A stretch of DNA of 13,610 bases, taken from NCBI GenBank assembly GCA_964595665.1, contig CAZQQS010000015.1:1-13610 (forward strand). The letters are read 5' to 3'. Positions 1 to 13,610 of this stretch are shown piece by piece (the first letter of the stretch is position 1; the number at the start of each line of letters is the position of its first letter). Made by a program: the position numbers and the translations under genes. Source of the stretch: an uncultured archaeon. Its GTDB lineage: Archaea; Iainarchaeota; Iainarchaeia; Iainarchaeales; 0-14-0-20-30-16. The notes under the pieces are model-generated. The model ran no database searches. It saw only the letters and a list, made by a program, of their open reading frames with translations, and was not told where the DNA came from.

Positions 1-326
1 AGGTTTTCCTTAAGCAGGGCTATAATATCATTAATATGCCCATCTAAATCCTTACACAAATTTAAGAAATAACCTTTATTGTCTATCTTATTTCTTATAG
101 AAATATATTTTAAAATTAATGTTAAAACTGCACAATAAATCCTAGGCTTTAATATCTTTTTATTACTAAAACCAAATTCATTTTGATTAAAAAAATCTCG
201 AATACTTTTTTGTAAATTAGAACTAAATTTATATGCATAAACCTTAGAATTATTATAGACTACAATAATACCTGAATTCTTAGCTAATAAATCATCGCCA
301 GTTACATCTACATTATAAACATCCAT
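1..326 (-). CDS. hypothetical protein, N-terminal 108 codons only (gene runs off the left window edge)
   Basis: This ORF is absent from the supplied track. My translation of the minus strand from the ATG (complement of 324-326) gives MDVYNVDVTGDDLLAKNSGIIVVYNNSKVYAYKFSSNLQKSIRDFFNQNEFGFSNKKILKPRIYCAVLTLILKYISIRNKIDNKGYFLNLCKDLDGHINDIIALLKENL, with no stop before position 1. A stop-free run of 108 codons is unlikely by chance in DNA this AT-rich. I recognise no family. Confidence 0.5.
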   Translation of the reverse strand, partial: MDVYNVDVTGDDLLAKNSGIIVVYNNSKVYAYKFSSNLQKSIRDFFNQNEFGFSNKKILKPRIYCAVLTLILKYISIRNKIDNKGYFLNLCKDLDGHINDIIALLKEN

Positions 327-413
327 AAGATCTCGCTAAATATATTATAAAAAGAAATATTTAAAAACCCTTTAATAAAAATAGATTTTTATACTTTAAA
401 GCATGTATTTATT

Positions 414-1046
414 ATGGTTATTAAGGCAATTACATTTGATTTGTGGGGAACTATATTAGATAATGAAACTAAATATAATGAATACCACACTAAATTAAGT
501 GATTATATTATTGATAAGCTAGGATTAAAATACTTCCAAAATATGTTTGTAGAAAATATGGATAAGAAACAATTCTTAGATGATGTGAAAATTCTTTTTG
601 GTGAAATTGAATCTAAATATGCTGAAAAATTATTAAATAAACAAATTAAAACTTTTAAAATATATTCTGATGTTAAATACATTTTTGAATTGCAAAAAAA
701 ATACGATATAAAAATTGGAATTATAAGTAATGCATCTTTTAGAACTTTTGAACTTTTAAAGAATTGGAAAGACTTAAAAAAATTTGATTCTATAACAATA
801 TCTTATGAATACGAAACGAAAAAACCAAATAAAGAAATATTTGAGATTAGTGCAAAAAAATTAAAAGTTCCTTTGAAAAACATCATTCATATAGGGGATA
901 ACTTCATAGATGATTTTGATGGCCCTAAAAAACAAAAAATAAATTCTATTTTATTAGACAGAGAAAATTATTATAAAAATGAAAAACAAAAAGTAAATAG
1001 TTTTAAAGAATTAGAAAAATATTTGTTAGAAAACAAATATTTATAA
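414..1046 (+). CDS. HAD-superfamily hydrolase, subfamily IA-like (haloacid dehalogenase / REG-2-like type)
   Basis: ITFDLWGTI is HAD motif I, with the nucleophile Asp present but Asp+2 replaced by Trp, as in the FDxYGTL/FDxxGTL subgroup. IISNAS is motif II, KKPNKEIF supplies the motif III Lys, and HIGDNFIDDFDG is the motif IV acidic loop. A TATA-like TTTTTATAC lies about 24 nt upstream of the ATG. Confidence 0.85.
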   Translation: MVIKAITFDLWGTILDNETKYNEYHTKLSDYIIDKLGLKYFQNMFVENMDKKQFLDDVKILFGEIESKYAEKLLNKQIKTFKIYSDVKYIFELQKKYDIKIGIISNASFRTFELLKNWKDLKKFDSITISYEYETKKPNKEIFEISAKKLKVPLKNIIHIGDNFIDDFDGPKKQKINSILLDRENYYKNEKQKVNSFKELEKYLLENKYL

Positions 1047-1050
1047 AACT

Positions 1051-1057
1051 AAAAAAA
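1051..1057 (-). terminator. oligo-T tract (T7 on the minus strand) just downstream of the surface-protein stop codon
   Basis: The A7 run at 1051-1057 on the plus strand reads as T7 on the minus strand, 7 nt after the TAA (complement of 1065-1067). Archaeal transcription termination commonly uses oligo-T tracts. The signal is weak in such AT-rich DNA. Confidence 0.3.
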
Positions 1058-1064
1058 GGAGGAA

Positions 1065-3158
1065 TTACTTCCAACCTTTATAAGTAGCTGTTTTTACTGG
1101 CTCTTTGTGTTTGAATTTGCCGCCTTTGTATTTTACTTTTGGAGCATTATCAACACCAAAACCTTGCCAATGATGTTTCTCTTCAACCCTAACAACTTTT
1201 TTATGTTTTTTATAAGGATTAAATCTAGGTTCTCTATTTTTTATTATTTTAATAATTAACCAAATAATTAAAGCTAAAATAATTAAACCTAAAATAACCA
1301 TTGCAATATAATACAAAATTGTACCTTTGTCTGAATTATACAAAACTTTAGGAACATTTACAACATCTTTAGTAAATAATAAACCATAAAATTGAGATTG
1401 TTTATCAGAATTTATTTCATAAGGCAAAGTGTATTCCAAAACATATTTGTTTAAATCAGAATTCAAATCAAACATTAAAAATTTGTTTGTATCAGGAATA
1501 TGTTCGTAAAATACAAAATTTAATAAACTTTCATTTGTATCTGGAATTATACTCAAAGTTACATTTGTTGTAAAACTATTATCATCATTCTTTACAACAT
1601 TAAAATCTCTTTCTAAAGCATATTTTGTATAAACTAAATTCTTATAATTTACATCTAAGTTTGTATTTAAGTCATCTGCGAAATTTCTTAAATCTAAATT
1701 TGCTAAACTATTATCTGCATCTTTAGATAAAGTAATTGTTGGCAAAGTTATTGTTTTTGCAGAAACAACCTTAAATGATTCATAAATAGTATTATTTCCT
1801 GTATATACATCACCAGAAATAGTTACTTTTGCTAAAACATCATATTCTCCAATTGTTTCAGGAACAAAATTACAAGTAAATGCTCTTGTTTTATTTACTG
1901 CAATGCTTGTAGAAGAGCTTTCTTTACAACTTTCAATAGTTTCATCATCTTTACTAATTATTATTTCCATAGTATATTTTGCAGATGTTTTTATATCTCC
2001 ATAATTTTGAAATACAAAACTAATTATTGTTTCTTTATCAACAATTAATTGATTTGCTTTTACAGAAATAGCTTCTAAATCAATTTCTGAATCACTATCA
2101 GAGCCAGATCCTCCTGCAGAAGTTGTTGCTTTTGATATTGTTTTATTAGTAGAATAATTATTATTTTCAGCATTAGACTCCAATAAACTATCTACTGGAG
2201 AAACTTTACATTCTAATTTAAAAGATTTATTCGAAGTTACAGAAGGAGCCCAATCAAAAGCATAATCTTTTATTGCTGAAGCATTATGTGCTCCTGAATT
2301 TGATTTCTTAGAACCTACTTGAACACCATCAACATAAAATATAACCTTATATTTATTATTTGTAGAAACATTACCATTATTTTTTACTTTACATGTTGCT
2401 GTAGAAGCAGTTCCAGAAACAGAACTATTTAAAGTAATGCTTGTGGGTTGCAAATCAATATAATTTACTTTAATTGTTTTATCTAAACAATTGTTTTCTA
2501 AATTGAAGTCATATGGATAATTTAAACAAACTTCTAATTTAATATCTCCAACTTGGTTTGCATACCAATTAAAATCATAAAAATAATTTTCATCTAAATT
2601 AACATTCTCGTCAAAAATAAATGTATTTAAGTCAATATTCTTTACTTTAAAAACAAAAGAATAATTATTGTCTAAATTCAAATATCCAACATTAGAATAA
2701 AGAAAATTCAAATCTAAAGTTCCTTGGTAATTCACATTTACATTAGATAAGAAATCTAATGCTTTCAAATCAATTGAATAAATGTAAACACTACTTTGAA
2801 CACATTCTAAAGCATTATTAGAATCTGAATCCAAATAAGAAATACATGCATTAAAATCATTATTACCTAAATTCAAATCAAAATCCCAAACATAAGAAAC
2901 AGTTTTATTCTCATCAACAGTATTTAATAATAATTCATTTATTAAAACTGTATTTACATAGAAATACACGTTATAATCTGAAACATTATAATCTAAAACA
3001 TTATAATCGTAATCCAATACTAACTCTAAATTAGTATCTACCCCATAAACATAAGAGTTTTTATCTAATGACAAATCTAAATTACTAAATGCGCTAGCAA
3101 AACTAAATAAAAATAAACCTAAAAATAATAGACTAAATACCTTGTTAAAATTAAACAT
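1065..3158 (-). CDS. large secreted, membrane-anchored surface protein with about four CARDB-like repeats (putative adhesin / cell-surface protein)
   Basis: The N-terminus MFNFNKVFSLLFLGLFLFSFASAFS is a signal peptide. Repeated modules end in ENN/E-x-N-E-NN-type motifs typical of CARDB domains (KVKNNGNVSTNNKYKVIFYVDG...ESNAENNNYS; FVFQNYGDIKTSAKYTMEII...TGNNTIYESFKV). An SAGGSGSDSDSE linker separates modules. There is one C-terminal TM helix (ILYYIAMVILGLIILALIIWLIIKII) followed by a 58-aa basic tail. The track start at 3173 is a TTG. I prefer the ATG at 3158 because GAAGGGG lies 5-10 nt upstream of it. Confidence 0.75.
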   Translation of the reverse strand: MFNFNKVFSLLFLGLFLFSFASAFSNLDLSLDKNSYVYGVDTNLELVLDYDYNVLDYNVSDYNVYFYVNTVLINELLLNTVDENKTVSYVWDFDLNLGNNDFNACISYLDSDSNNALECVQSSVYIYSIDLKALDFLSNVNVNYQGTLDLNFLYSNVGYLNLDNNYSFVFKVKNIDLNTFIFDENVNLDENYFYDFNWYANQVGDIKLEVCLNYPYDFNLENNCLDKTIKVNYIDLQPTSITLNSSVSGTASTATCKVKNNGNVSTNNKYKVIFYVDGVQVGSKKSNSGAHNASAIKDYAFDWAPSVTSNKSFKLECKVSPVDSLLESNAENNNYSTNKTISKATTSAGGSGSDSDSEIDLEAISVKANQLIVDKETIISFVFQNYGDIKTSAKYTMEIIISKDDETIESCKESSSTSIAVNKTRAFTCNFVPETIGEYDVLAKVTISGDVYTGNNTIYESFKVVSAKTITLPTITLSKDADNSLANLDLRNFADDLNTNLDVNYKNLVYTKYALERDFNVVKNDDNSFTTNVTLSIIPDTNESLLNFVFYEHIPDTNKFLMFDLNSDLNKYVLEYTLPYEINSDKQSQFYGLLFTKDVVNVPKVLYNSDKGTILYYIAMVILGLIILALIIWLIIKIIKNREPRFNPYKKHKKVVRVEEKHHWQGFGVDNAPKVKYKGGKFKHKEPVKTATYKGWK
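2968..3012 (-). repeat. in-frame tandem repeat, 3 x 15 nt, inside the surface-protein gene
   Basis: The plus-strand units are acgttataatctgaa / acattataatctaaa / acattataatcgtaa. They encode DYNV(L/S/Y) three times, within ...DYDYNVLDYNVSDYNVY.... Confidence 0.7.
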
Positions 3159-3305
3159 TACTACCCCTTCCAACTTTTTAATTAAAAAACTAATAGAAAT
3201 ATCTTAAATATATTTAAATACCTATCGAGGAAATGAAGAAAAAAAATAATAAAAAAACACAAAAGATTAAAAAAGGATTATTTCTATATTGTATAAGGTA
3301 TTAAT

Positions 3306-5147
3306 ATGAATTATAAAGAATTAGGCTTAAAAGCAGGCTTGGAATGCCACCAACAATTAAATACAAAAAAACTATTTTGTAATTGTGAATCAAATATTCC
3401 TGAAGACTTAGGTAATTTTGAAATATTTAGAAAATTAAGACCTGTTGCTTCAGAAACTGGAGAATTTGAAAAAAGTGCGCTACAAGAATTTAATAAAGGT
3501 AGAACTTATGTATATAACGCACATAAAGAAAATATTTGTTTAGTAGAATTGGATGAAGAACCCCCAAACGAGTTAAATAAAGAGGCATTAAATACAGCTT
3601 TAGAAGTTGCATTAAAATGTCAAGCAAATATTTTTGATAATGCCTTCATAATGAGAAAAATAGTTATTGATGGTTCTAATACTTCTGGATTTCAAAGAAC
3701 TGCATTAATTGCACAAAATGGATTTTTAGAAGTAAATAAAAAACAAGTTAGAGTTGGAAGTATTTGTTTAGAAGAAGATGCTTGCCAGAATGTAGAAAGC
3801 TCTTCTCATACAATAAAATACGCTTTAGAAAGATTAGGTATACCATTAATAGAATTTACAACTTATCCTGATTTAGAAAGCCCAGAAGAAGTAAAGGAAT
3901 GTGCCAAAAAAATTGGTGAATTATTTAGAATAACTGGAAATGCAAAAAGAGGATTAGGATCAATAAGACAAGATGTTAATGTTTCTATTAAAGAAGGAAA
4001 TAGAGTTGAAATTAAAGGTGTTCAATATTTAGATTTAATTAATCAATATGTTGAAAATGAAATCAAAAGACAAATTGCTTTAATTGAAACTATGAAAATA
4101 TTAAATGAAAAAAAAATAAAAGAAAAACAAAATTTTAAAATTTATGATTTAACTAAAGAAATGCTAGAAATTGAAAATGAAAAAATAAAAGATTCTTTAA
4201 AAACACAAAAAGCATTAGGATTTTTATTAAAAGGTTTTAAAGGAATCTTAGGCAAAGAAACAATGCCTGGAAAAAGAGTTGGCTCCGAAATATCTCAATA
4301 TGTAAAAACAAAAACTAAAGCCAAAGGATTATTCCATACAGATGAATTACCTAAATATGGAATAACACAAAAATTAATGGATCAAATAAATAAAAAATTA
4401 AATGCAGAAAAAGAAGATTTATTTATTATTGTAATAGAAGAGGAAAAAGAAGCCGAAAAGGCATTAAAGGTAGCATATGATAGAACGTTATTATTATTTG
4501 ATGGGGTAATAAAAGAAACTCGAAACCCTTTACAAGATGGCACTACAGAATATTCTAGACCCTTATCTGGAGAACATAGGATGTATCCAGAAACTGATTT
4601 GCCAACAATTAATATTAAAAAAGAACAATTAAAAGAATTAGAAAAGGATTTGCCAATTTGGTATGAAGAAAGAATTGCAAATTATCTGAAATTTGGATTA
4701 AATAAAAGCATATCTGAATATGTTGCAAAAACAAACTATGCTAGAAACTTTTCTAAATTAGTTACAAAATATAATGCATTAAGTTTAGCTGATTTTTTTA
4801 TGGCTTTACCTGAAAAGATAAACTTAGAAAAATATTTGTGGATTTTGGATTCGGAAAAAGAAAACAAATTAACAAGAAAAGATTTTCCTAATGCAATAAT
4901 AGAATTTTCAAAAGGAAAAACAAAAGAGGAAATATTAAACGCATTACAAAAATCTGAATTAGATGAAAATAGCAAAAAAATAATTATTGAAATATTAGAA
5001 AAAAATAAAGATTTTATTAAAAATCATCATAGTCCAATAACTGCTATGATGGGTACAATAATGAAAGCTTTAGCTGAAAATAAAATTAAACCAGATATGA
5101 AACAATTAACTGAATATTTAAATAATGAAATAAAAAAATATAGGTGA
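3306..5147 (+). CDS. gatE: archaeal Glu-tRNA(Gln) amidotransferase subunit E
   Basis: The N-terminus MNYKELGLKAGLECHQQLNTKKLFCNC matches the characteristic GatE/GatB start (GLExHQQL...CxC). At 613 aa it is GatE-sized rather than GatB-sized. It has an internal insertion domain and a helical C-terminal tail. AAGGTA lies about 7 nt upstream of the ATG. Confidence 0.93.
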   Translation: MNYKELGLKAGLECHQQLNTKKLFCNCESNIPEDLGNFEIFRKLRPVASETGEFEKSALQEFNKGRTYVYNAHKENICLVELDEEPPNELNKEALNTALEVALKCQANIFDNAFIMRKIVIDGSNTSGFQRTALIAQNGFLEVNKKQVRVGSICLEEDACQNVESSSHTIKYALERLGIPLIEFTTYPDLESPEEVKECAKKIGELFRITGNAKRGLGSIRQDVNVSIKEGNRVEIKGVQYLDLINQYVENEIKRQIALIETMKILNEKKIKEKQNFKIYDLTKEMLEIENEKIKDSLKTQKALGFLLKGFKGILGKETMPGKRVGSEISQYVKTKTKAKGLFHTDELPKYGITQKLMDQINKKLNAEKEDLFIIVIEEEKEAEKALKVAYDRTLLLFDGVIKETRNPLQDGTTEYSRPLSGEHRMYPETDLPTINIKKEQLKELEKDLPIWYEERIANYLKFGLNKSISEYVAKTNYARNFSKLVTKYNALSLADFFMALPEKINLEKYLWILDSEKENKLTRKDFPNAIIEFSKGKTKEEILNALQKSELDENSKKIIIEILEKNKDFIKNHHSPITAMMGTIMKALAENKIKPDMKQLTEYLNNEIKKYR

Positions 5148-5151
5148 TATT

Positions 5152-5574
5152 ATGACAGAAGAAATAATCTTTACAGCAAATACAAATGACTGGAAAGCAG
5201 TTAAGAAATTTAAAATAGATGAAAAAGTGCCTTCAATAGATGTGGCAAGTTTTTTAGCATCTGTAAGCATAAGCTTTGATACTAAAATATTTCAATATTT
5301 AAAAAAAGCAACAAATACTAAAACCTTAGATGAACATATTGATAATATTACAAAAGGCACATTTAAAACAGAAGAAGATATTGCTAAAGTATTAAAAGCA
5401 ATTAACTCAATGGCTTCTACAAAAGCAATTAATGCTTGTATTTCAGAAACATTGAGTCCGAAAGAAAAAGATTTGTTAAAATCATTTTTAAAAGCATATT
5501 TAACAAAAGCAACATTAGCAAAAATAAACTTTTGTGTTGATTATACTAATTTGCCTTTGAAAATAAATAAATAA
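5152..5574 (+). CDS. hypothetical small, predicted helical protein (140 aa), translationally coupled to gatE
   Basis: The ORF starts 4 nt after the gatE stop. A strong TAGGTGA Shine-Dalgarno motif is embedded in the gatE 3' end, 4-5 nt upstream of the ATG. I recognise no family motif. Confidence 0.6.
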   Translation: MTEEIIFTANTNDWKAVKKFKIDEKVPSIDVASFLASVSISFDTKIFQYLKKATNTKTLDEHIDNITKGTFKTEEDIAKVLKAINSMASTKAINACISETLSPKEKDLLKSFLKAYLTKATLAKINFCVDYTNLPLKINK

Positions 5575-5597
5575 ATATCATTTACCTTAGAAAATGG

Positions 5598-5617
5598 TCG
5601 TTTCTTTAAAGAAACGA
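5598..5617 (+). terminator. perfect 20-bp palindrome TCGTTTCTTTAAAGAAACGA followed by a T-rich run; terminator of the gatE-orf140 unit and/or operator of the downstream wHTH-MNT gene
   Basis: I checked every base pair 5598:5617 through 5607:5608 and all are complementary. As RNA it would form an 8-bp stem with a 4-nt loop. TTTATATTTCTTTCTATTTCT follows it. It sits 24 nt after the orf140 stop and directly upstream of the TATA-like TTTATATT (5618-5625). Confidence 0.4.
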
Positions 5618-5625
5618 TTTATATT
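5618..5625 (+). promoter_or_regulatory. TATA-box-like element placed for a leaderless transcript starting at ATG 5648
   Basis: TTTATATT is centred about 26-27 nt upstream of ATG 5648, the usual archaeal spacing between TATA box and transcription start. AT-rich background makes this weak evidence. Confidence 0.3.
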
Positions 5626-5647
5626 TCTTTCTATTTCTATATTGTAT

Positions 5648-6187
5648 ATGATTTCAGAATTCAATATTTTTAAAGGTCAAGTTGTGTTGAATTACTTTTT
5701 AGACCATCCAAATACTTTAATAAATATTAACGAGCTTGCAAAAAAACTAAAAATAAGTACAAAAACATCTAAAGAATATATTGATATACTCCTAAAAAAG
5801 CATTTACTTTTAGATAAAAGCTTAAAAAATAATAAAATAGTGTGTTTAAACAATAGTGATAAATTAATAAAAACATTAAAGATTGCACGAATGCTATCTC
5901 TAATAAAAGAACTTAATTTAGAAAAAGAAATAAATAATTCTTTTTACATATTTGGTAGTTGCGCAAATGGAACCTATAATGAAAAAAGTGATTTAGACAT
6001 TTTTGTTATAAAACAAAAAGAATATAATAAAGATGAAGTCATATCCTTAGCCAGCAAAATAAGATTAGAAGTTAATATTAAAGATGTACCCTACTACAAA
6101 TTAAATGAATATATTAAAAAAAATAAAGAATTTATCACAGAAGTAAAAAAGGGAATTTATTTTGGAGATGAATCTTATGAATTATAA
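5648..6187 (+). CDS. winged-HTH plus minimal nucleotidyltransferase (MNT) domain protein, antitoxin-type partner of the HEPN gene
   Basis: FGSCANGTYNEKSDLDIFV is the GS...DxD minimal nucleotidyltransferase signature. The N-terminal ININELAKKLKISTKTSKEYIDILLKK looks like an HTH. The track start at 5594 would add a hydrophobic 18-aa extension that encodes the 20-bp palindrome, so I prefer ATG 5648 (M19). Confidence 0.8.
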   Translation: MISEFNIFKGQVVLNYFLDHPNTLININELAKKLKISTKTSKEYIDILLKKHLLLDKSLKNNKIVCLNNSDKLIKTLKIARMLSLIKELNLEKEINNSFYIFGSCANGTYNEKSDLDIFVIKQKEYNKDEVISLASKIRLEVNIKDVPYYKLNEYIKKNKEFITEVKKGIYFGDESYEL

Positions 6188-6596
6188 TGATTGTTTAAGT
6201 GAAGGGCAAATAAAAATTAATCCTGAAACAAAAAACTGGGTTGATAAAGAATTAAATTCTGCAGAAATGTTTTTGCATCAATCAGAACTAATTATTAATA
6301 CAAATGCTTATGAATCTTGTTCTATTGTAGCATATTCTAGCATGTTTCACTCTACAAGATCTTTATTGTATTCTAAAGGATTCTCTGAAAAAGGACATTA
6401 TTGTTTATTCCAATATGTATTACACTTATTTAAAGACAATAAAGAATTAGTTCCCTTATTAAAAATAGCAAATATGTTTAGAAAAACTCGACAAGATATT
6501 GCATATGATAGTCTAAATACTAGCAAAGAAGAAGCTGAAGAAGCAATAAAAACAGCTAAAGAATTATTTACATTAGTTAAAGAAATTCTAAAATAA
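6177..6596 (+). CDS. HEPN domain protein (classical HEPN type), toxin-type partner of the MNT gene
   Basis: The protein appears all-helical. AYSSMFHSTRSLLYSKGFSEKGH and the C-terminal FRKTRQDIAYD...EEAEEAIKTAKE match the classical HEPN layout (A.Y.A...a..ALL...G...sH ... R....Y ... eeA). It overlaps the MNT gene by 11 nt, or 26 nt from the track TTG start. GGAG (6164-6167) lies 9 nt upstream of ATG 6177. Confidence 0.8.
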   Translation: MNYNDCLSEGQIKINPETKNWVDKELNSAEMFLHQSELIINTNAYESCSIVAYSSMFHSTRSLLYSKGFSEKGHYCLFQYVLHLFKDNKELVPLLKIANMFRKTRQDIAYDSLNTSKEEAEEAIKTAKELFTLVKEILK

Positions 6597-6609
6597 TCCA
6601 CTATTAGAC

Positions 6610-7914
6610 TTATTTCTTTATATTACAAATTAAAGATTTAGCTAAATCTTCAGGAAATTCAAAAACTAAAAAGCTTTCTTGCAATATTTTGGTATATTCT
6701 TGCATAGTAGATATAAAGAAAATATTCTTATTTAATTTTTCTAATTCTAACTTTAATTTAATTACTTCTTCTTTATTTATTGTAGATACTTGTCCTAATA
6801 AAATAATTACATATGTATTCGAAATACTTTTTGTTAAATTAATTGCTGTCAAATATCTTTTACAATCAGAATCACCCATTAAATCTATTGGATTCTTAAC
6901 AGATACACCTAAAGGCAAGTATTTTTTTAATTGATTTCTAACTTTTTCTGATAATTCTAAAATAGGAATATTAAATTCTTCAAAATAATCTGATAATAAT
7001 ATTCCATAGCCCCCACCATTAGTAATAATAGTTATATCTGTAATTGGTTTTTTAGAAATAATTGCTGAATAATTTACTAAATCATTAACAGTATTAGCAT
7101 TTATAACTTTAAATTGATTAAAAATTCCTTTATAAACAGAATAATCTCCTGCTAAATTTCCTGTATGACTTTGAACACTTTGTGAACCTTTCTTACTCTT
7201 ACCAGCTTTTAAAATTATTATTGGCTTTTTTTGTTTTCTTAATATCTCAACAAATCTTTTTCCATTAATAACTTCTTCAATATAGCATGCGATTACGTCA
7301 GTATTATTATCTTTATTTAAATATTCAATTAAATCACATTCATTAATGTCACAAGCATTACCATAACTAACAAACTTATTCAACCCAATATTTTTCTTTT
7401 CAAATTGATTAATTAATATTCCTCCAACAGTCCCTGATTGACTAATTAAAGAAATTTTTCCTCTTTTTGGTCTTTTTTGTGCTTCTGTAGATAAAAATAA
7501 AGTATCTAAATTATTATAATTATCAAATATTCCTAAAACATTAGGACCTACAATTCTTATTTTATTCTTTTTTGCAAACTCTTTTAATTTATTTTCAGAA
7601 ATTAAATCCCCTGCTTCTTTAAATCCAGAACTAATTATAATTACATATTTTGTTTTCTTTTTTGCACAATCTTTCAAAACATCAAAAACATACTCTTTAG
7701 GTACGGCAATTATAGCTAAATCCAATTGTTTTATAGGAATATTTTTTAAAGATGGATATGCTTTCAATCCCAAAACAATTTTCTCATTTAAATTAATAGG
7801 ATAAATTTGTTTTCTAGAATTCAAAATATTCTTTAAAATAGTATAACCTATCTTACCTTGTTTATTTGATGCGCCTATAACAGCAACACTTTCAGGATTA
7901 AATAATTCATTCAT
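6610..7914 (-). CDS. acetate--CoA ligase (ADP-forming) / acyl-CoA synthetase (NDP-forming), alpha subunit
   Basis: ESVAVIGASNKQGKIG is the CoA-binding Rossmann N-terminus. SQSGTVG is present, and QSHTGNLAG is the phosphohistidine loop (compare SHTGSLAG of archaeal ACD alpha). At 434 aa it is alpha-subunit sized. GTGAT lies 4 nt upstream of the ATG, which is only 4 nt after the upstream gene's stop. Confidence 0.85.
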   Translation of the reverse strand: MNELFNPESVAVIGASNKQGKIGYTILKNILNSRKQIYPINLNEKIVLGLKAYPSLKNIPIKQLDLAIIAVPKEYVFDVLKDCAKKKTKYVIIISSGFKEAGDLISENKLKEFAKKNKIRIVGPNVLGIFDNYNNLDTLFLSTEAQKRPKRGKISLISQSGTVGGILINQFEKKNIGLNKFVSYGNACDINECDLIEYLNKDNNTDVIACYIEEVINGKRFVEILRKQKKPIIILKAGKSKKGSQSVQSHTGNLAGDYSVYKGIFNQFKVINANTVNDLVNYSAIISKKPITDITIITNGGGYGILLSDYFEEFNIPILELSEKVRNQLKKYLPLGVSVKNPIDLMGDSDCKRYLTAINLTKSISNTYVIILLGQVSTINKEEVIKLKLELEKLNKNIFFISTMQEYTKILQESFLVFEFPEDLAKSLICNIKK

Positions 7915-7918
7915 ATTA

Positions 7919-9352
7919 TCACTTTGATAAAGATGGTCTTAAAACAAATCTAAATGGTTTCGAATCCTTTATTGTAATTCCAACTTCATTATCTTCTAAA
8001 ACAGATAATTTTGCTGTAATTTTATTTAATAATTCAGACATAAAATCAATTTCGTTTTCTGCAAATAAAACATAATGCTTAGAATTATTTTTTAATAACA
8101 ACTCAAAAAAACTTTTTGATAATAAATCAGTATCAGTTCTTTTAAAATATTTTGTAATGTCATCAAAAAATATTGCTATGTTTTCTTCTTTTTCTAAAAT
8201 CTTTTTTAATTGATTATAAATAATTAATTTATTTGCATAAATACTATCATTTAAAGTAATTAAATGTAAAGCCCCTAAATTCTTATTTTGTTCTTTAAAA
8301 TAATCACTTACACTTACTTCTCCCAAAAATACTCCAGGATTCTTTTGTTTTATTATAGAAATAATTCTTTGTGCTAAATTAATATTATATGATGAAAACT
8401 TTTCATCTGGTTCAAATATATCTAAACTTTTTAATAAATTATCTAAAGTATTTGGTTTCTTTTCCAAAATAACTTTATTTATCAACTCTTTAATGATTGG
8501 ATTATTTATTCCATTTATTTCATTAAATACATTTTCAGGCAAATCTAAAAGATTACAATATATTTTCTCACCTAAAGCATAAGTAATCATTGGAAAACCC
8601 ATTGGCGCCAATTTATTCTTTTCTTGTGCCTCTTTATTTTCATTCGGGTATTTTATATTAGCTAATCCCAAATCAGAAGAAAATGCTACAACATTAACTT
8701 TATTTAATAAAAAGTTCTCTAAAAGAATCCTTTTAGTTGATTTATTTTCTTTTCCAAAAACAAAAGTTCTTAAAAATAAATTACAGGTTTCTAAAACTTG
8801 TTCTCCCGTAATCTTATAATATCCTAAAAAACAATCTGTTGTTGAATTATCTACTTTAGAAACTTCGTGAGATTTAGGGTTTTTATTAACTGATATAAAA
8901 GAAAATAAATTTAATGGATTTGAAAAAATACCTTTTTTGTATTCCAAAGGTAATTCAGAATATTCTTTAAAATTAATTTCATAAGAATTAGCTATACTAA
9001 TTATATTTTTAATATCTTTTCTTAATTTAGTAAATTGAGAATTAATAAAATCAAAAACATCTTTTTGTTCGTAAGCAACAACTTCTTGATCACCTAAAAG
9101 CAATAAATATTTTTTATTTGTTTGAGAATGCATTAAAATAAATATTGCATTTCTTGGCAAAGACTCTACAAAAGATTCAGAATCTCCAAATACCCCTGAA
9201 ATTTGACAAACATATAACACAGACTTAGTTTTCTCAGAGTTTAGTATTTCAGAAATTATAAATCCTTCCTCATTAAAAAATATTTTTAATGAATAATCAT
9301 CATATATTCCAGTAAATAACTCTTTCCAAGGCCCATTTGGGTATTCAATCAT
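7919..9352 (-). CDS. hypothetical protein with a HerA/FtsK-like (DUF87-type) P-loop NTPase layout and a degenerate Walker A
   Basis: TFVFGKENKSTKRILLENFLLNKVNVVAFSSDLG resembles the HerA-type pattern h-h-G-x-T-G-S-G-K-S-x...viifD, but reads G-K-E-N-K-S-T, one residue short and lacking the second Gly. IAIFFDDITKYF is Walker-B-like. HYVLFAENEIDFMSELLNKITAKL resembles the TQrP...ls-type sensor region. The protein ends in the tail FRFVLRPSLSK. These are motif-level resemblances only. Confidence 0.4.
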   Translation of the reverse strand: MIEYPNGPWKELFTGIYDDYSLKIFFNEEGFIISEILNSEKTKSVLYVCQISGVFGDSESFVESLPRNAIFILMHSQTNKKYLLLLGDQEVVAYEQKDVFDFINSQFTKLRKDIKNIISIANSYEINFKEYSELPLEYKKGIFSNPLNLFSFISVNKNPKSHEVSKVDNSTTDCFLGYYKITGEQVLETCNLFLRTFVFGKENKSTKRILLENFLLNKVNVVAFSSDLGLANIKYPNENKEAQEKNKLAPMGFPMITYALGEKIYCNLLDLPENVFNEINGINNPIIKELINKVILEKKPNTLDNLLKSLDIFEPDEKFSSYNINLAQRIISIIKQKNPGVFLGEVSVSDYFKEQNKNLGALHLITLNDSIYANKLIIYNQLKKILEKEENIAIFFDDITKYFKRTDTDLLSKSFFELLLKNNSKHYVLFAENEIDFMSELLNKITAKLSVLEDNEVGITIKDSKPFRFVLRPSLSK

Positions 9353-9432
9353 ACAAACACCATAAAATTTATAAACATCTATTACTTATTATAATATCAT
9401 AATAATATAAATATTTATGCATAGGTGTTTGT
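9353..9432. promoter_or_regulatory. 80-bp divergent promoter/leader region bounded by a 9-bp inverted repeat
   Basis: ACAAACACC (9353-9361) and GGTGTTTGT (9424-9432) are exact reverse complements. Each abuts the start codon of one divergent gene, giving GGTGTTTGT-ATG on the minus strand and GGTGTTTGT-TTG on the plus strand. The AT-rich core contains several TATA-like runs (TTTATAAA, TTATAATAT, ATATAAATATTTAT). Confidence 0.45.
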
Positions 9433-9963
9433 TTGGATCAAGGAATATTGGATACTATTACTAATTTAAAAAATTCTGGATTAAATGATTCTGAAATAAA
9501 AAATATGTTAAAGGATATTGGATTTGAGGATAATGTTATTGATGAAGCATTAAACTATAAAAAAACGAAAGCTCCAGAACAAAAAGAAACAGAATCTGAG
9601 GTAACAGAAGAAATTAAAGAACAAAAATCTAATGAAGATGAAATTAAAAAACATTCAGATACAGCTAAATTAGCGAGTAGTGTTACAATGAATGTTGCTC
9701 AAAATGCATCAGATAAATTAGATGCGCATAAAGAAAGTATGCAAAATATGAATACTAAAATAAATGATCTAAGTTCAGGTTTTGAAAGATTACCTACAAA
9801 AGAACATATTGAGGAAATAAAAACAATGCATTCCTCAATAAATGAGAAAAATACTAATTTAGATAAAAAAGTAGATGCTTTGGATGCTAAAATGGAATCT
9901 TTAACTAAAATAATGAAAGATATTTTAGAAAGCCAAAGAGATATTTTAATGAGATTAAGATAA
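9433..9963 (+). CDS. hypothetical acidic coiled-coil protein with a small N-terminal helical-hairpin motif
   Basis: The start is a TTG preceded by a GGTG Shine-Dalgarno motif at 5-nt spacing. The N-terminal LKNSGLNDSEIKNMLKDIGFEDNVIDEAL fits the common archaeal pattern 'G-x-s-x-x-e-I-x-x-x-L-x-x-x-G-x...i-x-x-A-L', a UBA-like helical hairpin. The remainder is Glu/Lys-rich with heptad-like stretches (KVDALDAKMESLTKIMKDILESQRDILMRL). Confidence 0.55.
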   Translation: MDQGILDTITNLKNSGLNDSEIKNMLKDIGFEDNVIDEALNYKKTKAPEQKETESEVTEEIKEQKSNEDEIKKHSDTAKLASSVTMNVAQNASDKLDAHKESMQNMNTKINDLSSGFERLPTKEHIEEIKTMHSSINEKNTNLDKKVDALDAKMESLTKIMKDILESQRDILMRLR

Positions 9964-9975
9964 AAATAAAAAATT

Positions 9976-9997
9976 AGATGTTCAGAATCGAACATCT
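9976..9997. terminator. hairpin (8-bp stem, 6-nt loop) at the convergent gene junction, flanked by T-tracts on both strands
   Basis: AGATGTTC (9976-9983) pairs perfectly with GAACATCT (9990-9997). On the plus strand it is followed by TTTGTCTTTTTAGTTTTT. On the minus strand the region after the TGA stop reads AATTTTTTATTTTTA. The hairpin overlaps the last codons of the CBS gene. Confidence 0.4.
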
Positions 9998-11034
9998 CCC
10001 ATTTGTCTTTTTAGTTTTTGAACAGCTAATTCTGTTGCGTGCTCAAAACCCCAACCCTCAGTAGATATATTCCAAGTATTCTTAGGTTCAATAATTCTTA
10101 ATCTACAATTTACTAAAGGCAAAGTTCTAAATTTCTCCTTACCCAATTTATAATATACAAAAATCTTTGCATTTGGGCCCAAAAACTTATATAACGATTC
10201 GAATTTCTTCTCAACATCTGGTTTATATATTCCAGAAAACTTTGCAGAAATATAAACTTCTGGTTTTTCATAAATCTCTTGTCCTAAAGAATAGATATAA
10301 TATTCCAAAATATTTGTCTTTGTTACTATACCTGATAATTCATTATTTTGCATTATTAGCACTGATGAAACATTTTTATCTACAAAAGTATCAATTAATT
10401 TAGATAACAAATCAGATTTACTTAAAATAATTATATCTGATTTCATTACTTGCTTTACCAAAGTAGTTTGTAATTGTAATCGAGTAATTTGTGTAGCGTG
10501 TATAAAATAGCCCAAAATTGTAGATAATGTTATTACCCCTTTTACTTTTCCATCAAAAACTACTAATTTAGAAATTCCTTTTTCTTGAAATATAGATAAT
10601 ACTTTTGCTAAATTATCGTTTTCTGAAACAGTTATAGGATTATAATTTATTAATGGTGTAATTGCAATATTTCCTATTTCTTTTGAAATAGTTTTTAAAA
10701 AATCAGTTCTTTGTAAAACGCATTCTAATTTTTGTTTATTTTCATCAAATACAGGTAAAAAATGTGCACCACTTTCTATAAAAATTTTTGCCACATCCAA
10801 ATTAGAGGTATTTGAAGTAATAATTGCTGGTTTATAAACTATAGAATCTATTTTGACTTCTGGAAAAAATAACCCTTCTTTTAGAATATTTTTTCTTGTT
10901 ACTATTCCCAAATATTTTTCTTTATCAAAAACAATTACTTGTTTATCTTTTTTTAATTTAGGAATTATTTTTGAAACTGATTCTGAAGCATCAACTATCA
11001 AATAATCTTTAATATTATTACAAGTCCAACTCAT
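9982..11034 (-). CDS. four-CBS-domain protein with a C-terminal HPF/RaiA-like (S30AE-type) beta-alpha-beta-beta-beta-alpha domain
   Basis: There are four CBS-type units: IVDASESV...VIVFDKEKYLGIVTRKNIL; AIITSNTSNLDVAKIFIESGAHFLPVFDEN...LECVLQRTDFL; ITVSENDNLAKVLSIFQEKGISKLVVFDGKVKGVITLSTIL; IIILSKSDLLSKLIDTFVDKNVSSVLIMQNNELSGIVTKTNIL. The C-terminal residues 261-353 (nt 9985-10263) are discussed in the findings. The track start at 11043 is a GTG. I prefer ATG 11034, with GAGGTG 6 nt upstream. The CBS call is firm, while the HPF-like call is about 0.45. Confidence 0.7.
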   Translation of the reverse strand: MSWTCNNIKDYLIVDASESVSKIIPKLKKDKQVIVFDKEKYLGIVTRKNILKEGLFFPEVKIDSIVYKPAIITSNTSNLDVAKIFIESGAHFLPVFDENKQKLECVLQRTDFLKTISKEIGNIAITPLINYNPITVSENDNLAKVLSIFQEKGISKLVVFDGKVKGVITLSTILGYFIHATQITRLQLQTTLVKQVMKSDIIILSKSDLLSKLIDTFVDKNVSSVLIMQNNELSGIVTKTNILEYYIYSLGQEIYEKPEVYISAKFSGIYKPDVEKKFESLYKFLGPNAKIFVYYKLGKEKFRTLPLVNCRLRIIEPKNTWNISTEGWGFEHATELAVQKLKRQMGDVRF

Positions 11035-11122
11035 ATACATCACCTCTTTACAATATAAGTATGTTTTAAAGATTTATATGTCTTTCTTATATTATATATT
11101 TATTGAGATTTTAGTGAGATTT

Positions 11123-11644
11123 ATGCAAAAATTTTATGGAATTTTAAATGATAGGAAAACTATTATTACAGATAATAATACAATATCTAGATTGTGTGAA
11201 AAAAACATTGGTGAGAAACACAAAAGCTTTTTAGTTTTAGATGAATACGAAACAATGTATTTATTAGATAATAATTGGCTTGAATTAAAAAGTGAAAATA
11301 AAAAAATCACTGCTAAAAAATATTTGGAAAGTCTAATTGTTGAGAAAAAGGAATTTTTACAAAAATATCAAGTATATTTTGAATTTAAAAATTTAGGATA
11401 CATTATTAAAACAGGATTAAAATTTGGTTTTGATTTTAGAGTATACCCTAAAGGTAAAAAAATTAATGAATCTCACACAAAATATGTTGTAAGTGTAATA
11501 TCTGAAAATAAAAAAATTACTACTAAAGATTTAGCAAAAGGTATACGATTATCTATTGGATTACATACAGAAATATTAATTGCAATTGTAGATAATCAAT
11601 TTGATGTAACTTACTATAAATTCTCAAGAGAAAAAATAATGTGA
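11123..11644 (+). CDS. endA: tRNA-splicing endonuclease, homotetramer-type size (~173 aa)
   Basis: GYIIKTGLKFGFDFRVYPKGKKINESHTKYVVSV aligns with my recollection of M. jannaschii EndA, GYIVKTGLKYGADFRLYERGANIDKEHSVYLVKV, which carries the catalytic Tyr and His. ILIAIVDNQFDVTYY aligns with LLIAIVDADGDIVYY. The N-terminus MQKFYGILNDRKTIITDNNTISRL aligns with [25 protein letters not shown], so I prefer ATG 11123 (with GTGAG upstream) over the track start at 11078. Confidence 0.88.
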   Translation: MQKFYGILNDRKTIITDNNTISRLCEKNIGEKHKSFLVLDEYETMYLLDNNWLELKSENKKITAKKYLESLIVEKKEFLQKYQVYFEFKNLGYIIKTGLKFGFDFRVYPKGKKINESHTKYVVSVISENKKITTKDLAKGIRLSIGLHTEILIAIVDNQFDVTYYKFSREKIM

Positions 11645-11648
11645 TTCT

Positions 11649-12128
11649 ATGACAAAAATAATTTATGCTCCTTTAAGAGAAAACTATGTTGAAAATAATA
11701 ACAAGAATAATAAAAATAATGGTTGCCCATTTTGCAATTTAAATAATAAAAAAGATTTATTAGTTTATGAAGGCAATACAGGATATATTTTAGCAAATAA
11801 ATATCCCTATTTATATGGTCATTTAATGATTATTCCAAAAAGACATATTACTGACATATTAGATTTGAATAAAGATGAAGATAAAGACATGATGCTATTA
11901 ATTAAAAAAGCAATTAAATTATTAAAAGAAACTTTTAATCCTGATGGTTTTGATATGGGCTATCAAAGTATATTTGGAGGTGCTTCTGTAGAACATATTC
12001 ATTTTCATGTTGTACCTAGGTTTAAAGGTGATACGGGATTTATGAATTTATTAGATGATGTTAATATAATCGCAGAAAAACCTGAAGAAATGGTTAAAAA
12101 ATTAAAAAAGAAAAATCATATTTTTTAA
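11649..12128 (+). CDS. HIT-family nucleotide hydrolase/transferase of the Ap4A-phosphorylase-like branch ('YAPWR...CxFC')
   Basis: EHIHFHVVPRFKGDTGFM is the histidine triad HxHxHxx with the downstream GDTxFM. The N-terminal IYAPLRENYV...GCPFC and NKYPYLYGHLMIIPKRH match this branch. The start lies 4 nt after the endA stop, with GTGAT upstream. Confidence 0.88.
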   Translation: MTKIIYAPLRENYVENNNKNNKNNGCPFCNLNNKKDLLVYEGNTGYILANKYPYLYGHLMIIPKRHITDILDLNKDEDKDMMLLIKKAIKLLKETFNPDGFDMGYQSIFGGASVEHIHFHVVPRFKGDTGFMNLLDDVNIIAEKPEEMVKKLKKKNHIF

Positions 12129-12136
12129 GTGAGATT

Positions 12137-12562
12137 ATGTCTTATACCATATACAAGCCAAATAATTCAAAAACTGGTTCGGCATTAAATATAGATTTTA
12201 ATAAAAACAAAAAATCAATATTCTTAGAATTCTCTAAACAAATAGAAGAAAAAAAATTTGATTGGCAAAATAAACAAATATTTAAATTAAGTGCCCAAGA
12301 TGCTGCAAAAATTTGTGTATTTGTTAAAGATAAGAAAGAGGAAATGCAATTATTTCATGATCCTAATAAATCAATTAATGAAACTTCAGTTAAAAATGCT
12401 GTTTTAAAAATATCTAGAAATAATTATGGCTACTCATTTAAAATAAATCAACAAGAAAAAGATAATACATTAAATTCAATTCAAATATCATTAACAGAAG
12501 ATGAAATTTATATATTAATTATAATATTCAACAAAGCAATTGAAGAAATTTATAGTGATTAG
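12137..12562 (+). CDS. Whirly-like single-stranded nucleic-acid-binding protein (candidate)
   Basis: By-eye alignment to remembered plant WHY1/p24 sequence gives four matches. [21 protein letters not shown] matches [44 protein letters not shown] matches [33 protein letters not shown] matches [33 protein letters not shown] matches [22 protein letters not shown]. GTGAG lies upstream of the ATG. Confidence 0.55.
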   Translation: [141 protein letters not shown]

Positions 12563-13324
12563 ATGCCTGGATTTACAGCCCCTAAAAAACCAAGTAGAAC
12601 AAACTTAGAAAATAAAAAAATAGAGCTTAAGAAAAAAAGAGATAAATATGAAGAAAAATTTAAAAGAGTAAGAAAATCAATATACGATTATGATGAAGCA
12701 TTAAGAATTGGAGAATATGGTAAAATGGCATTAAACTTTGCAAAGCAAGCAATTAAAAAAGGCAAAATACCTATAATTGTTTTGCCAGATACGTCTATGA
12801 GAACTTCAACTTATTTTTTTAATACTTTATTAGTTAATGCATTTCCAGAAATTTATTTGCCACTATACAAAAAATATAGACAACAAGCAATTACACACGT
12901 TTATTCTTCAAGAGAAAACAACATAGTTAAAATACCTCAATATCTAAAACAAATACCTAATGCTGAATTTATTATATTTGATCACATCCATAGTGGTAAT
13001 TCGGTCAATAAAATAAAATTGTCTTTCGAAAAAGAATTAAATAAATCTTTAGATTCTAAAAATATAAATGAATTCATATTTAATGGAGAAGATAAACCCA
13101 TATTTTATAAAAATACTGTACCTTTTGAAGGTTTTGGAAATGTTGTTAAAGATAAACAAGGAAATATAGAAATTATTAAAAAACGAAAAGGTAAATTCAA
13201 TTTAGATCCTTTAATTAATGAAGATTATGATAATGAAATATTTTTAGAAATGATATTAAGAAGACGAGAATTAAGACAAATGGCATTATATATGGCAAGA
13301 GAATACAAATTAAAAAAAAATTAA
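12563..13324 (+). CDS. hypothetical protein with a type-I phosphoribosyltransferase-like layout and a divergent PRPP loop
   Basis: AEFIIFDHIHSGNSVNKI fits the pattern h-h-h-h-D-D-h-x-x-[ST]-G-x-[ST], except that the second Asp is His. The upstream GKIPIIVLPDTSMRTSTYFFNTLL resembles the 'd-x-iv-x-i-x-rgG...a..l' hood region. There is a basic ~40-aa N-terminal extension (KKPSRTNLENKKIELKKKRDKYEEKFKRVRK). The ATG immediately follows the TAG stop of the Whirly-like gene. Confidence 0.35.
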   Translation: MPGFTAPKKPSRTNLENKKIELKKKRDKYEEKFKRVRKSIYDYDEALRIGEYGKMALNFAKQAIKKGKIPIIVLPDTSMRTSTYFFNTLLVNAFPEIYLPLYKKYRQQAITHVYSSRENNIVKIPQYLKQIPNAEFIIFDHIHSGNSVNKIKLSFEKELNKSLDSKNINEFIFNGEDKPIFYKNTVPFEGFGNVVKDKQGNIEIIKKRKGKFNLDPLINEDYDNEIFLEMILRRRELRQMALYMAREYKLKKN

Positions 13325-13610
13325 ATCTTGCCTAATTTTTTCGCTAGTTCTTCTGTTTCAGTCAATAAAGATTTAACCTCATTAATTCCTTTTAACCAAA
13401 AAGATTCATCAGAAATATCTATGCCCAATTCCAATAAAACATTTTTAGGACTATCTCTATTACCAGAACTCAAGAATTCTTTTATCTTTTTCATATTATT
13501 TGCATCTTGTTTATACATCGCTTGTAAAGCTTTAGATACTAATAATCCTGATGCGTAAGTATAATTATAAAAATAATTTCTTATATGTGACCAATATAAC
13601 CACCAATTTT
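13321..13610 (-). CDS. oligoendopeptidase F-like (M3B family) peptidase, C-terminal ~95 codons (gene continues beyond the right edge)
   Basis: The track lists only the last 65 aa, from an internal Met. My translation extends the same frame to the window edge: NWWLYWSHIRNYFYNYTYASGLLVSKALQAMYKQDANNMKKIKEFLSSGNRDSPKNVLLELGIDISDESFW.... This matches the PepF C-terminal pattern (H..FY.Y.YA.G...s.AL ... L..G.s..P...L...GiD). Confidence 0.75.
   Translation of the reverse strand, partial: NWWLYWSHIRNYFYNYTYASGLLVSKALQAMYKQDANNMKKIKEFLSSGNRDSPKNVLLELGIDISDESFWLKGINEVKSLLTETEELAKKLGKI

Follow-up and report, generated by a model that had tools for sequence, protein, structure and literature searches.

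A HibA/AHA-family CBS-HPF fusion protein, a probable ribosome hibernation factor, encoded in a Diapherotrites-like DPANN archaeon

The hibA-like gene and the architecture of its product

The DNA analysed here, referred to as the window, is a stretch of 13,610 nucleotides from an uncultured archaeon (assembly GCA_964595665.1, contig CAZQQS010000015.1, positions 1 to 13,610). It carries on its minus strand a gene, named here hibA-like, whose product (the window protein) combines four CBS domains with a C-terminal domain of the HPF/RaiA type. Based on the comparisons summarized below, the product of this gene is very probably an orthologue of HibA/AHA, the ribosome hibernation factor of archaea, in a Diapherotrites-like DPANN archaeon, where it would hold ribosomes silent as described for its homologues. 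The CBS-HPF fusion, which a preliminary description of the window had recognized by eye, was validated and is no longer a discovery: it has been public since a preprint of October 2025, and cryo-EM structures from several laboratories date from 2025-2026. The window protein is a new member of this known family.

In the list of open reading frames, the hibA-like frame spans 9982..11043 on the minus strand and gives 353 aa from a GTG codon. Residue numbers throughout this paper refer to this 353-aa frame, the numbering of the preliminary description; the 350-aa frame is offset by 3 residues. The ATG at 11034, which yields the 350-aa product and corresponds to the end coordinate of that description, is likely the start codon, because NCBI lists this very 350-aa product for a 13,610-nt contig, the orthologues are 346-352 aa long, and the Shine-Dalgarno-like GAGGTGAT is suitably placed for this codon and overlaps the alternative starts GTG (11043) and ATG (11040). 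The 93-aa C-terminal peptide quoted earlier is the exact translation of 9985-10263. The features of the gene are collected in Table 1.

Table 1. Features of the hibA-like gene and its product (window coordinates; residues in the 353-aa frame)
Feature	Coordinates	Strand	Description and basis
hibA-like gene	9982..11034	-	350 aa + stop; 353 aa from the alternative GTG start at 11043
Shine-Dalgarno-like GAGGTGAT	11039..11046	-	4 nt upstream of the ATG at 11034; read from the sequence
CBS1	10864..11019	-	about residues 9-60; motif GIVTRKN; Asn52 at the ribose-Asp position; Pfam, AF2, alignment
CBS2	10675..10860	-	about residues 62-123; Asp114 nearly invariant in the clade
CBS3	10504..10668	-	about residues 126-180; motif GVITLST; Thr175 where most HibAs carry Asp (..T-x-H-D..)
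Shortened loop 3 ("PTC loop") between CBS3 and CBS4	10462..10503	-	residues 181-194; alignment
CBS4	10285..10461	-	about residues 195-253; motif GIVTKTN; Asn244 where other HibAs carry Asp
Long beta2-beta3 hairpin KLGKEKFRTLPLV	10111..10149	-	residues 299-311; equivalent of the Pa-HibA insertion 324-KFRGVHL-330; alignment
HPF-like C-terminal domain	9985..10263	-	AF2 models, Foldseek, Pfam PF02482 17.8 bits

The four CBS motifs, proposed earlier to form two Bateman modules, were confirmed by three approaches. Pfam PF00571 (CBS) matched in four stretches with an E-value of 9e-34, far above chance. The full-length AlphaFold2 (AF2) model, built on 18 aligned sequences (predicted local distance difference score, pLDDT, 85.5; predicted template-modelling score, pTM, 0.82), contains four beta-alpha-beta-beta-alpha units, CBS1-CBS4, followed by a compact C-terminal domain. 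In Foldseek searches of a PDB library with entries to 8 April 2026, this model matched the ribosome-bound CBS tetrads SriA/SriB, SriD and Dri (9ZNF_4, 9ZNG_7, 9ZNI_6, 9E7F_3; E 1e-13 to 4e-17) as well as the AMPK-gamma-type tetrad (E ~1e-14; template-modelling (TM) score 0.50-0.55). The listed PDB matches of the full-length model in this library were CBS tetrads only, with no HibA chain among them. In a sequence search of the PDB, the best match of the CBS part alone was chain H of entry 9SR9, the HibA of Pyrococcus abyssi (Pa-HibA), with an E-value of 1.8e-17 over residues 13-243, which comprise all four CBS domains. NCBIfam held no specific model for the window protein, giving partial CBS matches far below the cut-offs and leaving the C-terminal domain unmatched.

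The C-terminal domain is located behind a 255-aa CBS module, with 5 residues beyond its last helix motif. In the AF2 model it consists of a strand (262-267), a helix (274-287), three strands (293-305, 308-319 and 322-331) and a second helix (333-352), which is the order of strands and helices proposed in the preliminary description, and the topology was unchanged when the domain was modelled alone (pLDDT 88.2). When the isolated domain was compared with the PDB by Foldseek, all of the 18 best matches were bacterial or plastid HPF, RaiA/pY or related ribosome-bound factors. The best was Listeria innocua HPF on the 70S ribosome (8UU4_w; E 9e-6, TM score 0.77, root-mean-square deviation 2.1 Å), and the others included the Coxiella "ribosomal subunit interface protein", E. 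coli HPF (6H4N, 2RQL), Thermus protein Y, Vibrio HPF, Chlamydomonas pY, and factors from Mycobacterium and Staphylococcus. PelC ranked lower, with a poorer TM score. As an alternative, the domain could be a small alpha/beta fold unrelated to HPF and similar to it in topology only (ACT, ferredoxin-like or dsRBD-like), with a ligand or RNA as binding partner, a case in which the preliminary description would have expected no HPF match at all. Chains of dsRBD proteins (Loquacious, DCL4, Dicer partners) do appear among the Foldseek matches, but they rank under the HPF family (E at least 4e-3 and TM scores 0.39-0.50, vs 9e-6 and 0.77), and neither ACT nor ferredoxin-like proteins occur in the top 50 PDB matches of the domain. 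All three identities were rejected on this ranking.

The sequence profiles bear on the same alternative. Ribosomal_S30AE (PF02482) is the sole non-CBS Pfam match of the protein; it covers residues 277-348 and remained under the gathering threshold of 23.7 bits, with 15.1 bits when the whole protein was searched and 17.8 bits (E 0.0055) when only the last 93 aa were, a point in favour of an unrelated fold. A match to this family at E<1 was found in 17/18 aligned sequences (the window protein and 17 homologues; best 2.6e-5), and because the relatives P0024 (25.2 bits) and P0063 (24.0 bits) exceed the threshold, the window protein is linked to PF02482 transitively. A profile of the C-terminal domain (alignment A2) matched 9SR9_H first in the PDB (E 2e-7) and 9L96_a next (E 4.6e-6), then, weakly and over the whole domain, Vibrio HPF 4HEI (E 0.15), followed by a long HPF (E 0.97). 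The resemblance of the second helix to bacterial HPF, noted earlier, was reproduced weakly by HMMER, which aligned ...NVSVEGWGVEHAVELAVEKLKRQL to ...EIHAHADDENMYAAIDSLVDKLVRQL of Vibrio cholerae HPF (4HEI) in the same match at E 0.15. These profiles connect the domain to HibA and, one step further, to bacterial HPF, some relatives score above the Pfam threshold, and the corresponding HibA domain has been seen in the ribosomal HPF site; an unrelated fold is therefore extremely improbable.

The HPF-like domain is basic (net charge +7, pI 9.65) and retains the ..KLKRQ.. helix. In its long hairpin, KEKFRTLPL (302-310) aligns with 322-NEKFRGVHL-330 of Pa-HibA; within the clade, G301 and K304 of this hairpin are invariant, and K302 and E303 nearly so. 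In the C-terminal domain, G301, K304, W331 and F353 are invariant in the clade.

Both halves of the protein indicate HibA independently, because the CBS part alone and the C-terminal profile each match 9SR9_H best. The complete window protein likewise found this chain (392 aa, deposited as "Dehydrogenase") as its best PDB sequence match, collinear over residues 16-348, with an E-value of 1.9e-24, and the clade profile matched it with 1.5e-55. The entries 9SR9-9SRF and 9T7H are 70S-HibA complexes of P. abyssi (Madru et al., Nat Commun 2026; PMC13324472), in which Pa-HibA is UniProt Q9UYR4. HibA is an experimentally characterised archaeal hibernation factor, defined by its authors through the CBS-HPF fusion and not through loop 3, and reported in ~47% of archaeal genomes (PMC13324472). 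The same family was described independently under the name AHA (HVO_2384) from work on Haloferax volcanii, and its 3,160 homologues were reported to come from 2,723 archaeal species belonging to 17 phyla (Souza et al., bioRxiv 2026; PMC12934967), so the view that HPF-family factors are known from bacteria and plastids, from which the preliminary description started, is outdated. For the window protein itself, the present comparisons establish the domain architecture, the fold, homology to HibA along the full length, conservation within the clade and conservation of the hairpin. The public annotation of such proteins (no name, or "predicted transcriptional regulator") could be replaced by "HibA/AHA-family ribosome hibernation factor (CBS-HPF)".

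The clade profile also matched, over its full length, chain a of PDB entry 9L96 (406 aa; E 5.4e-50). This "CBS domain-containing protein", present in 9L96, 9L98, 9L9C and 9L9V, resembles haloarchaeal HibA/AHA, including the Natronomonas homologue in our alignment. No paper citing these four entries was found in the literature search.

As to distribution, the survey of orthologues suggested in the preliminary description showed that the fusion is kept in 15 full-length orthologues with 51-98% identity, in which the C-terminal domain is well conserved. A profile search with this domain through 1.84 billion representative proteins gave 75 clusters. Proteins of 340-410 aa with the domain at the C-terminus make up 38 of them, including the window protein's own cluster, about 25 consist of stand-alone proteins of ~100-125 aa, and the remainder are shorter or intermediate and probably fragments. 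This spread matches the published picture, which comprises both HibA and stand-alone "HPF/RaiA-like" proteins.

A separate observation concerns a subset of CBS-HPF proteins that are devoid of the EKFR insertion, namely the protein encoded at 4962-6107 of L064, a Micrarchaeota metagenome-assembled genome (MAG), and the proteins P0028, P0031, P0076, P0077, P0080, P0081 and P0093. They carry a short "..GK..KYS" turn that is nearer to the hairpin length of bacterial HPF, which suggests that the HPF domain of archaea comes in two or more structural subtypes.

Proposed role and reductions in the clade

The function of the family is known only from the HibA of P. abyssi and T. barophilus and the AHA of H. 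volcanii. In HibA/AHA, the HPF domain lies in the 30S mRNA/tRNA channel, with contacts to h18/h23/h24/h28/h44, uS7, uS11 and uS12, and the CBS module lies on the 50S subunit (PMC13324472, PMC12934967). The CBS module of P. abyssi HibA was seen at the peptidyl-transferase centre (PTC), uL5 or the L1 stalk of the same 70S ribosome, and the archaea-specific insertion 324-KFRGVHL-330 in the beta14-beta15 hairpin contacts uS12 and the decoding bases (PMC13324472). HibA inhibits translation in extracts and the CBS module alone does not (PMC13324472). In stationary phase, a delta-hibA mutant of Thermococcus barophilus contained ~60% fewer 70S ribosomes, and its lag phase was doubled (PMC13324472); delta-AHA H. 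volcanii lost viability and ribosomal proteins (PMC12934967). Slow recovery was reported for the deletion mutants of both (PMC13324472, PMC12934967).

By homology, the window protein would bind ribosomes and serve the same physiological role, and the ribosome-silencing function suggested in the preliminary description agrees with this published cryo-EM, biochemistry and genetics on homologues. The HPF-like domain would anchor the factor in the 30S mRNA/tRNA channel, with the archaea-type EKFR hairpin lying against uS12, and the tethered four-CBS disc would occupy tRNA sites left vacant on that ribosome's large subunit. In this way the 70S particle would stay joined, translationally silent and protected during starvation or stress.

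The other part of the preliminary description, in which the CBS pairs serve as dimerisation unit and nucleotides as a gate, fared less well. According to this alternative, AMP/ATP would switch ribosome binding, and CBS-CBS pairing would produce 100S-like particles, replacing the C-terminal domain of long HPF. Many stand-alone Bateman proteins dimerise, and adenylates are commonly bound by CBS tetrads. The CBS module of Pa-HibA binds AMP (dissociation constant 12 uM), ADP and ATP, with AMP the tightest (PMC13324472), AHA carries two AMP molecules at CBS3/CBS4 (PMC12934967), and ATP-triggered release was reported for the unrelated ARC pair. Against these points, AMP or ATP left the ribosome occupancy and the conformational landscape of Pa-HibA largely unchanged (PMC13324472), so that gating is unproven even there, and the coupling of AMP to loop 3 exposure in AHA was only hypothesised by its authors (PMC12934967). 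The four-CBS chain is already an intramolecular pair of Bateman modules forming a disc, and one HibA/AHA molecule spans the 30S and 50S subunits of a single 70S ribosome; the portion of the HibA text covered by the search describes no 100S-type ribosome dimers (PMC13324472). In the window protein, gating is doubtful in addition, because the ribose-binding Asp is replaced by Thr175 (CBS3) and Asn244 (CBS4); the same Asp-to-Asn change is the published explanation of the empty nucleotide site of ARC-A. A nucleotide-gated dimerising factor is therefore very unlikely.

The substitutions at these sites belong to a set of reductions found in the clade of the window protein. The alignment comprised the window protein, Pa-HibA (residues 16-368), HibA genes taken from loci in eight phyla, and 36 representatives of the fusion, and 45 HibAs were compared: 6 short-loop clade proteins (the window protein, L003-L005, P0024 and P0025) and 39 others. 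The segment equivalent to residues 186-210 of Pa-HibA, which contains the PTC loop (loop 3), is 17 residues long in 6/6 clade proteins and 25 in Pa-HibA; it measures 20-50 residues, usually 25, in 39/39 HibAs outside the clade, which makes the clade's loop the shortest of the 45. The G-E-K/R motif at the loop tip is missing in the clade. The CBS3 motif, T-x-H-D in most HibAs, reads T-L-S-T or ..S/T-N in all six short-loop proteins, and outside the clade its Asp is missing in only 3 of the 39. In CBS4, Asp is changed to Asn in the window protein (T-K-T-N244) and L005, and is retained in L003, L004, P0024 and P0025. The window protein ends 5 residues past ..KRQM (..KRQM-GDVRF), and most HibAs have a tail of ~14-38 residues here; tails of at most 9 aa also occur in 7 other representative HibAs, so that tail loss is not unique to the clade.

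Judged from this alignment, the window protein is probably a reduced HibA that does not thread into the PTC, and it may lack adenylate sensing at the canonical CBS3/CBS4 site. It would probably stop short of the PTC, adenine nucleotides at CBS3/CBS4 may be bound weakly or not at all, and its action may proceed mainly through the HPF domain, with the CBS disc as a steric occupant. The CBS1/CBS2 pair, where Asp114 is nearly invariant in the clade, may contain a ligand site.

Several observations weigh against the assignment as a HibA/AHA hibernation factor. The PF02482 score of the window protein itself is below threshold, its identity to Pa-HibA is low, and because the listed Foldseek matches included no HibA chain, there was no direct structural superposition on HibA. 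The gene neighbourhood lends no functional support. Finally, with loop 3 being 8 residues shorter than in Pa-HibA and having no tip motif, the CBS3/CBS4 Asp replaced and the tail missing, the PTC insertion, the binding of AMP at CBS3/CBS4 and the tail near the duplex of Shine-Dalgarno (SD) and anti-SD may not apply to the window protein.

These three reduced features, all used by the characterised HibA/AHA, could also fit a degenerate or repurposed HibA paralogue that does not act on ribosomes and serves as a CBS-type regulator of another partner or as a transcriptional regulator. A 98%-identical protein is labelled "predicted transcriptional regulator" by JGI, and Pa-HibA was also pulled down with DNA replication and recombination proteins (PMC13324472). 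That label, however, is an automatic annotation of CBS proteins, and the regulators of the CM-3 type have no HPF domain. The ribosome-anchoring HPF-like domain of the window protein is well conserved: the EKFR hairpin is retained, as are the basic surface and the ..KLKRQ helix; moreover, Pa-HibA devoid of both archaeal HPF insertions still inhibits translation, and its C-terminal domain is essential (PMC13324472). We regard a repurposed paralogue as unlikely, and a HibA/AHA-type hibernation factor remains the preferred assignment.

Within this preferred assignment, a tentative and rather doubtful proposal is that the Diapherotrites-type clade represents a naturally "uncoupled" minimal HibA, in which the silencing of ribosomes would rely on the HPF domain and on the CBS disc as a passive occupant, with no adenylate sensing. 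The loss of loop 3 and the loss of the Asp co-occur in one lineage of 6 proteins, which amounts to a single event and not to a statistic. If the proposal were true, the joint loss of loop 3 and nucleotide site would lend comparative support to the suggestion of the AHA authors that AMP controls loop 3 exposure, and would show how host-dependent archaea with reduced genomes have simplified hibernation. As a compact variant provided by nature, in which loop 3 is a stub, the CBS3/CBS4 motifs are altered and the tail is absent, the window protein could help to separate the silencing features of HibA from those of energy sensing.

Genomic setting and accompanying genes

The closest loci were found in MAGs of Candidatus Diapherotrites (DPANN) by an alignment-based scan of genome contigs; the same scan with the single window protein gave no confirmed relative. 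The gene order around the hibA-like gene is conserved in GCA_053535935.1. The window has a GC content of about 24% throughout, and HibA is herewith documented in a 24% GC Diapherotrites-like DPANN lineage. The archaeal nature of the genome is borne out by two neighbours, the gene for archaeal-type GatE (3306-5147) and that for an archaeal tRNA-splicing endonuclease (11078-11644). The window also contains a gene for an alpha-type subunit of ADP-forming acyl-CoA synthetase (6610-7914), and further genes for a HIT protein, an MNT/HEPN-like pair, a DUF2666 protein and a CARDB surface protein. Searches for tRNA genes and Rfam families found none in the window.

The hibA-like gene is monocistronic. 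Of its two neighbours, the one coding for a coiled-coil protein is convergent with it and the one coding for the tRNA endonuclease is divergent, which led us to reject a functional operon link; the synteny shared with the related locus L001 reflects closeness of lineage and not a tie in function.

Two conserved proteins are encoded near the hibA-like gene both in the window and in L001. One, of 477 aa (7919-9352, minus strand; L001 5168-6634), has no credible Pfam family. The other, of 176 aa (9433-9963, plus strand; L001 4563-5072), is a predicted coiled-coil protein with an RNase_Y_N-like match of 18.6 bits, below the cut-off. On the other side, a 141-aa protein (12137-12562, plus strand; also L001 1946-2377) matches Pfam Whirly (PF08536) with an E-value of 3.2e-15, and its gene adjoins the HIT gene in a related DPANN contig. 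Whirly proteins are known best as plant single-stranded-DNA-binding transcription factors. A 253-aa basic protein (12563-13324, plus strand) and a 65-aa open reading frame at the contig end (13321-13518, minus strand) gave no Pfam match.

Two further loci were observed. An overlapping pair of genes (5594-6187 and 6162-6596, both plus strand) encodes a protein with a helix-turn-helix and a nucleotidyltransferase domain (Polbeta/NTP_transf_2), followed by a HEPN protein, and resembles a toxin-antitoxin system of the MNT/HEPN type; such a pair is also present in L001, adjoining DUF2666 and GatE. The protein encoded at 1065-3173 (minus strand; 702 aa) is very rich in Asn, Asp and Ser. Its N-terminal segment is signal-like, low-complexity "DYNV" repeats lie close to the N-terminus, and it contains one CARDB domain (E 1.4e-7) as well as a basic tail and a transmembrane helix at the C-terminus. 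A location at the cell surface is probable.

Comparison with known systems

Pa-HibA is the closest characterised relative. It shares with the window protein collinearity over residues 16-348, the EKFR(G) beta-hairpin insertion, the basic character and an archaeal host. The two differ in length (392 aa in Pa-HibA vs 350 aa), in the CBS3 and CBS4 motifs (T-L-H-D and T-V-K-D vs T-L-S-T and T-K-T-N), in loop 3, which in Pa-HibA is 8 residues longer with a G-E-K tip that the window protein does not have, and in the tail, which in Pa-HibA continues for 24 aa towards the mRNA exit channel, whereas the window protein has 5 aa after the last helix motif. Their hosts, a hyperthermophile and the source of a 24% GC DPANN MAG, are different as well. 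AHA of H. volcanii and the haloarchaeal-type 9L96_a likewise share the fusion of a CBS tetrad with HPF, but loop 3 of the haloarchaeal members is very long, reaching ~50 residues in the Natronomonas homologue, their tails measure ~28 aa, and the Asp residues of the two-AMP site at CBS3/CBS4 of AHA are substituted in the window protein.

With the bacterial and plastid HPF/RaiA proteins (YfiA, pY), the C-terminal domain shares the core fold and length (TM scores 0.6-0.77 for Listeria, E. coli, Thermus, Vibrio, Coxiella, Mycobacterium and Staphylococcus) and a similar ..(D/E)KL.RQ(L/M) motif in the last helix. The sequence similarity is marginal (15-22% identity; 15-18 bits in Pfam), and the beta2-beta3 hairpin of the window protein is extended. 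Its layout is neither the stand-alone nor the long-HPF one of PF02482, as the domain is positioned C-terminal to a CBS module. Long bacterial HPF carries a C-terminal dimerisation domain, whereas the archaeal family carries an N-terminal CBS tetrad that binds the 50S subunit; in the solved homologues this module contacts the same 70S ribosome that holds the HPF domain, which speaks against the CBS pairs as a dimerisation unit. We know of no 100S formation by the archaeal HibA family.

A similar CBS-tetrad fold is found in other archaeal, ribosome-associated proteins, SriA-D or ARC-A/P of Methanosarcina and Methanolobus and Dri of Pyrobaculum. Unlike HibA, these have no HPF domain and block the mRNA channel by CBS modules or "occlusion elements", and they are phylogenetically complementary to HibA, not co-occurring with it. 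The AMPK-gamma-type sensor is also similar in fold, but the ribose-binding Asp of its sites 3 and 4 corresponds to Thr175 and Asn244 in the window protein.

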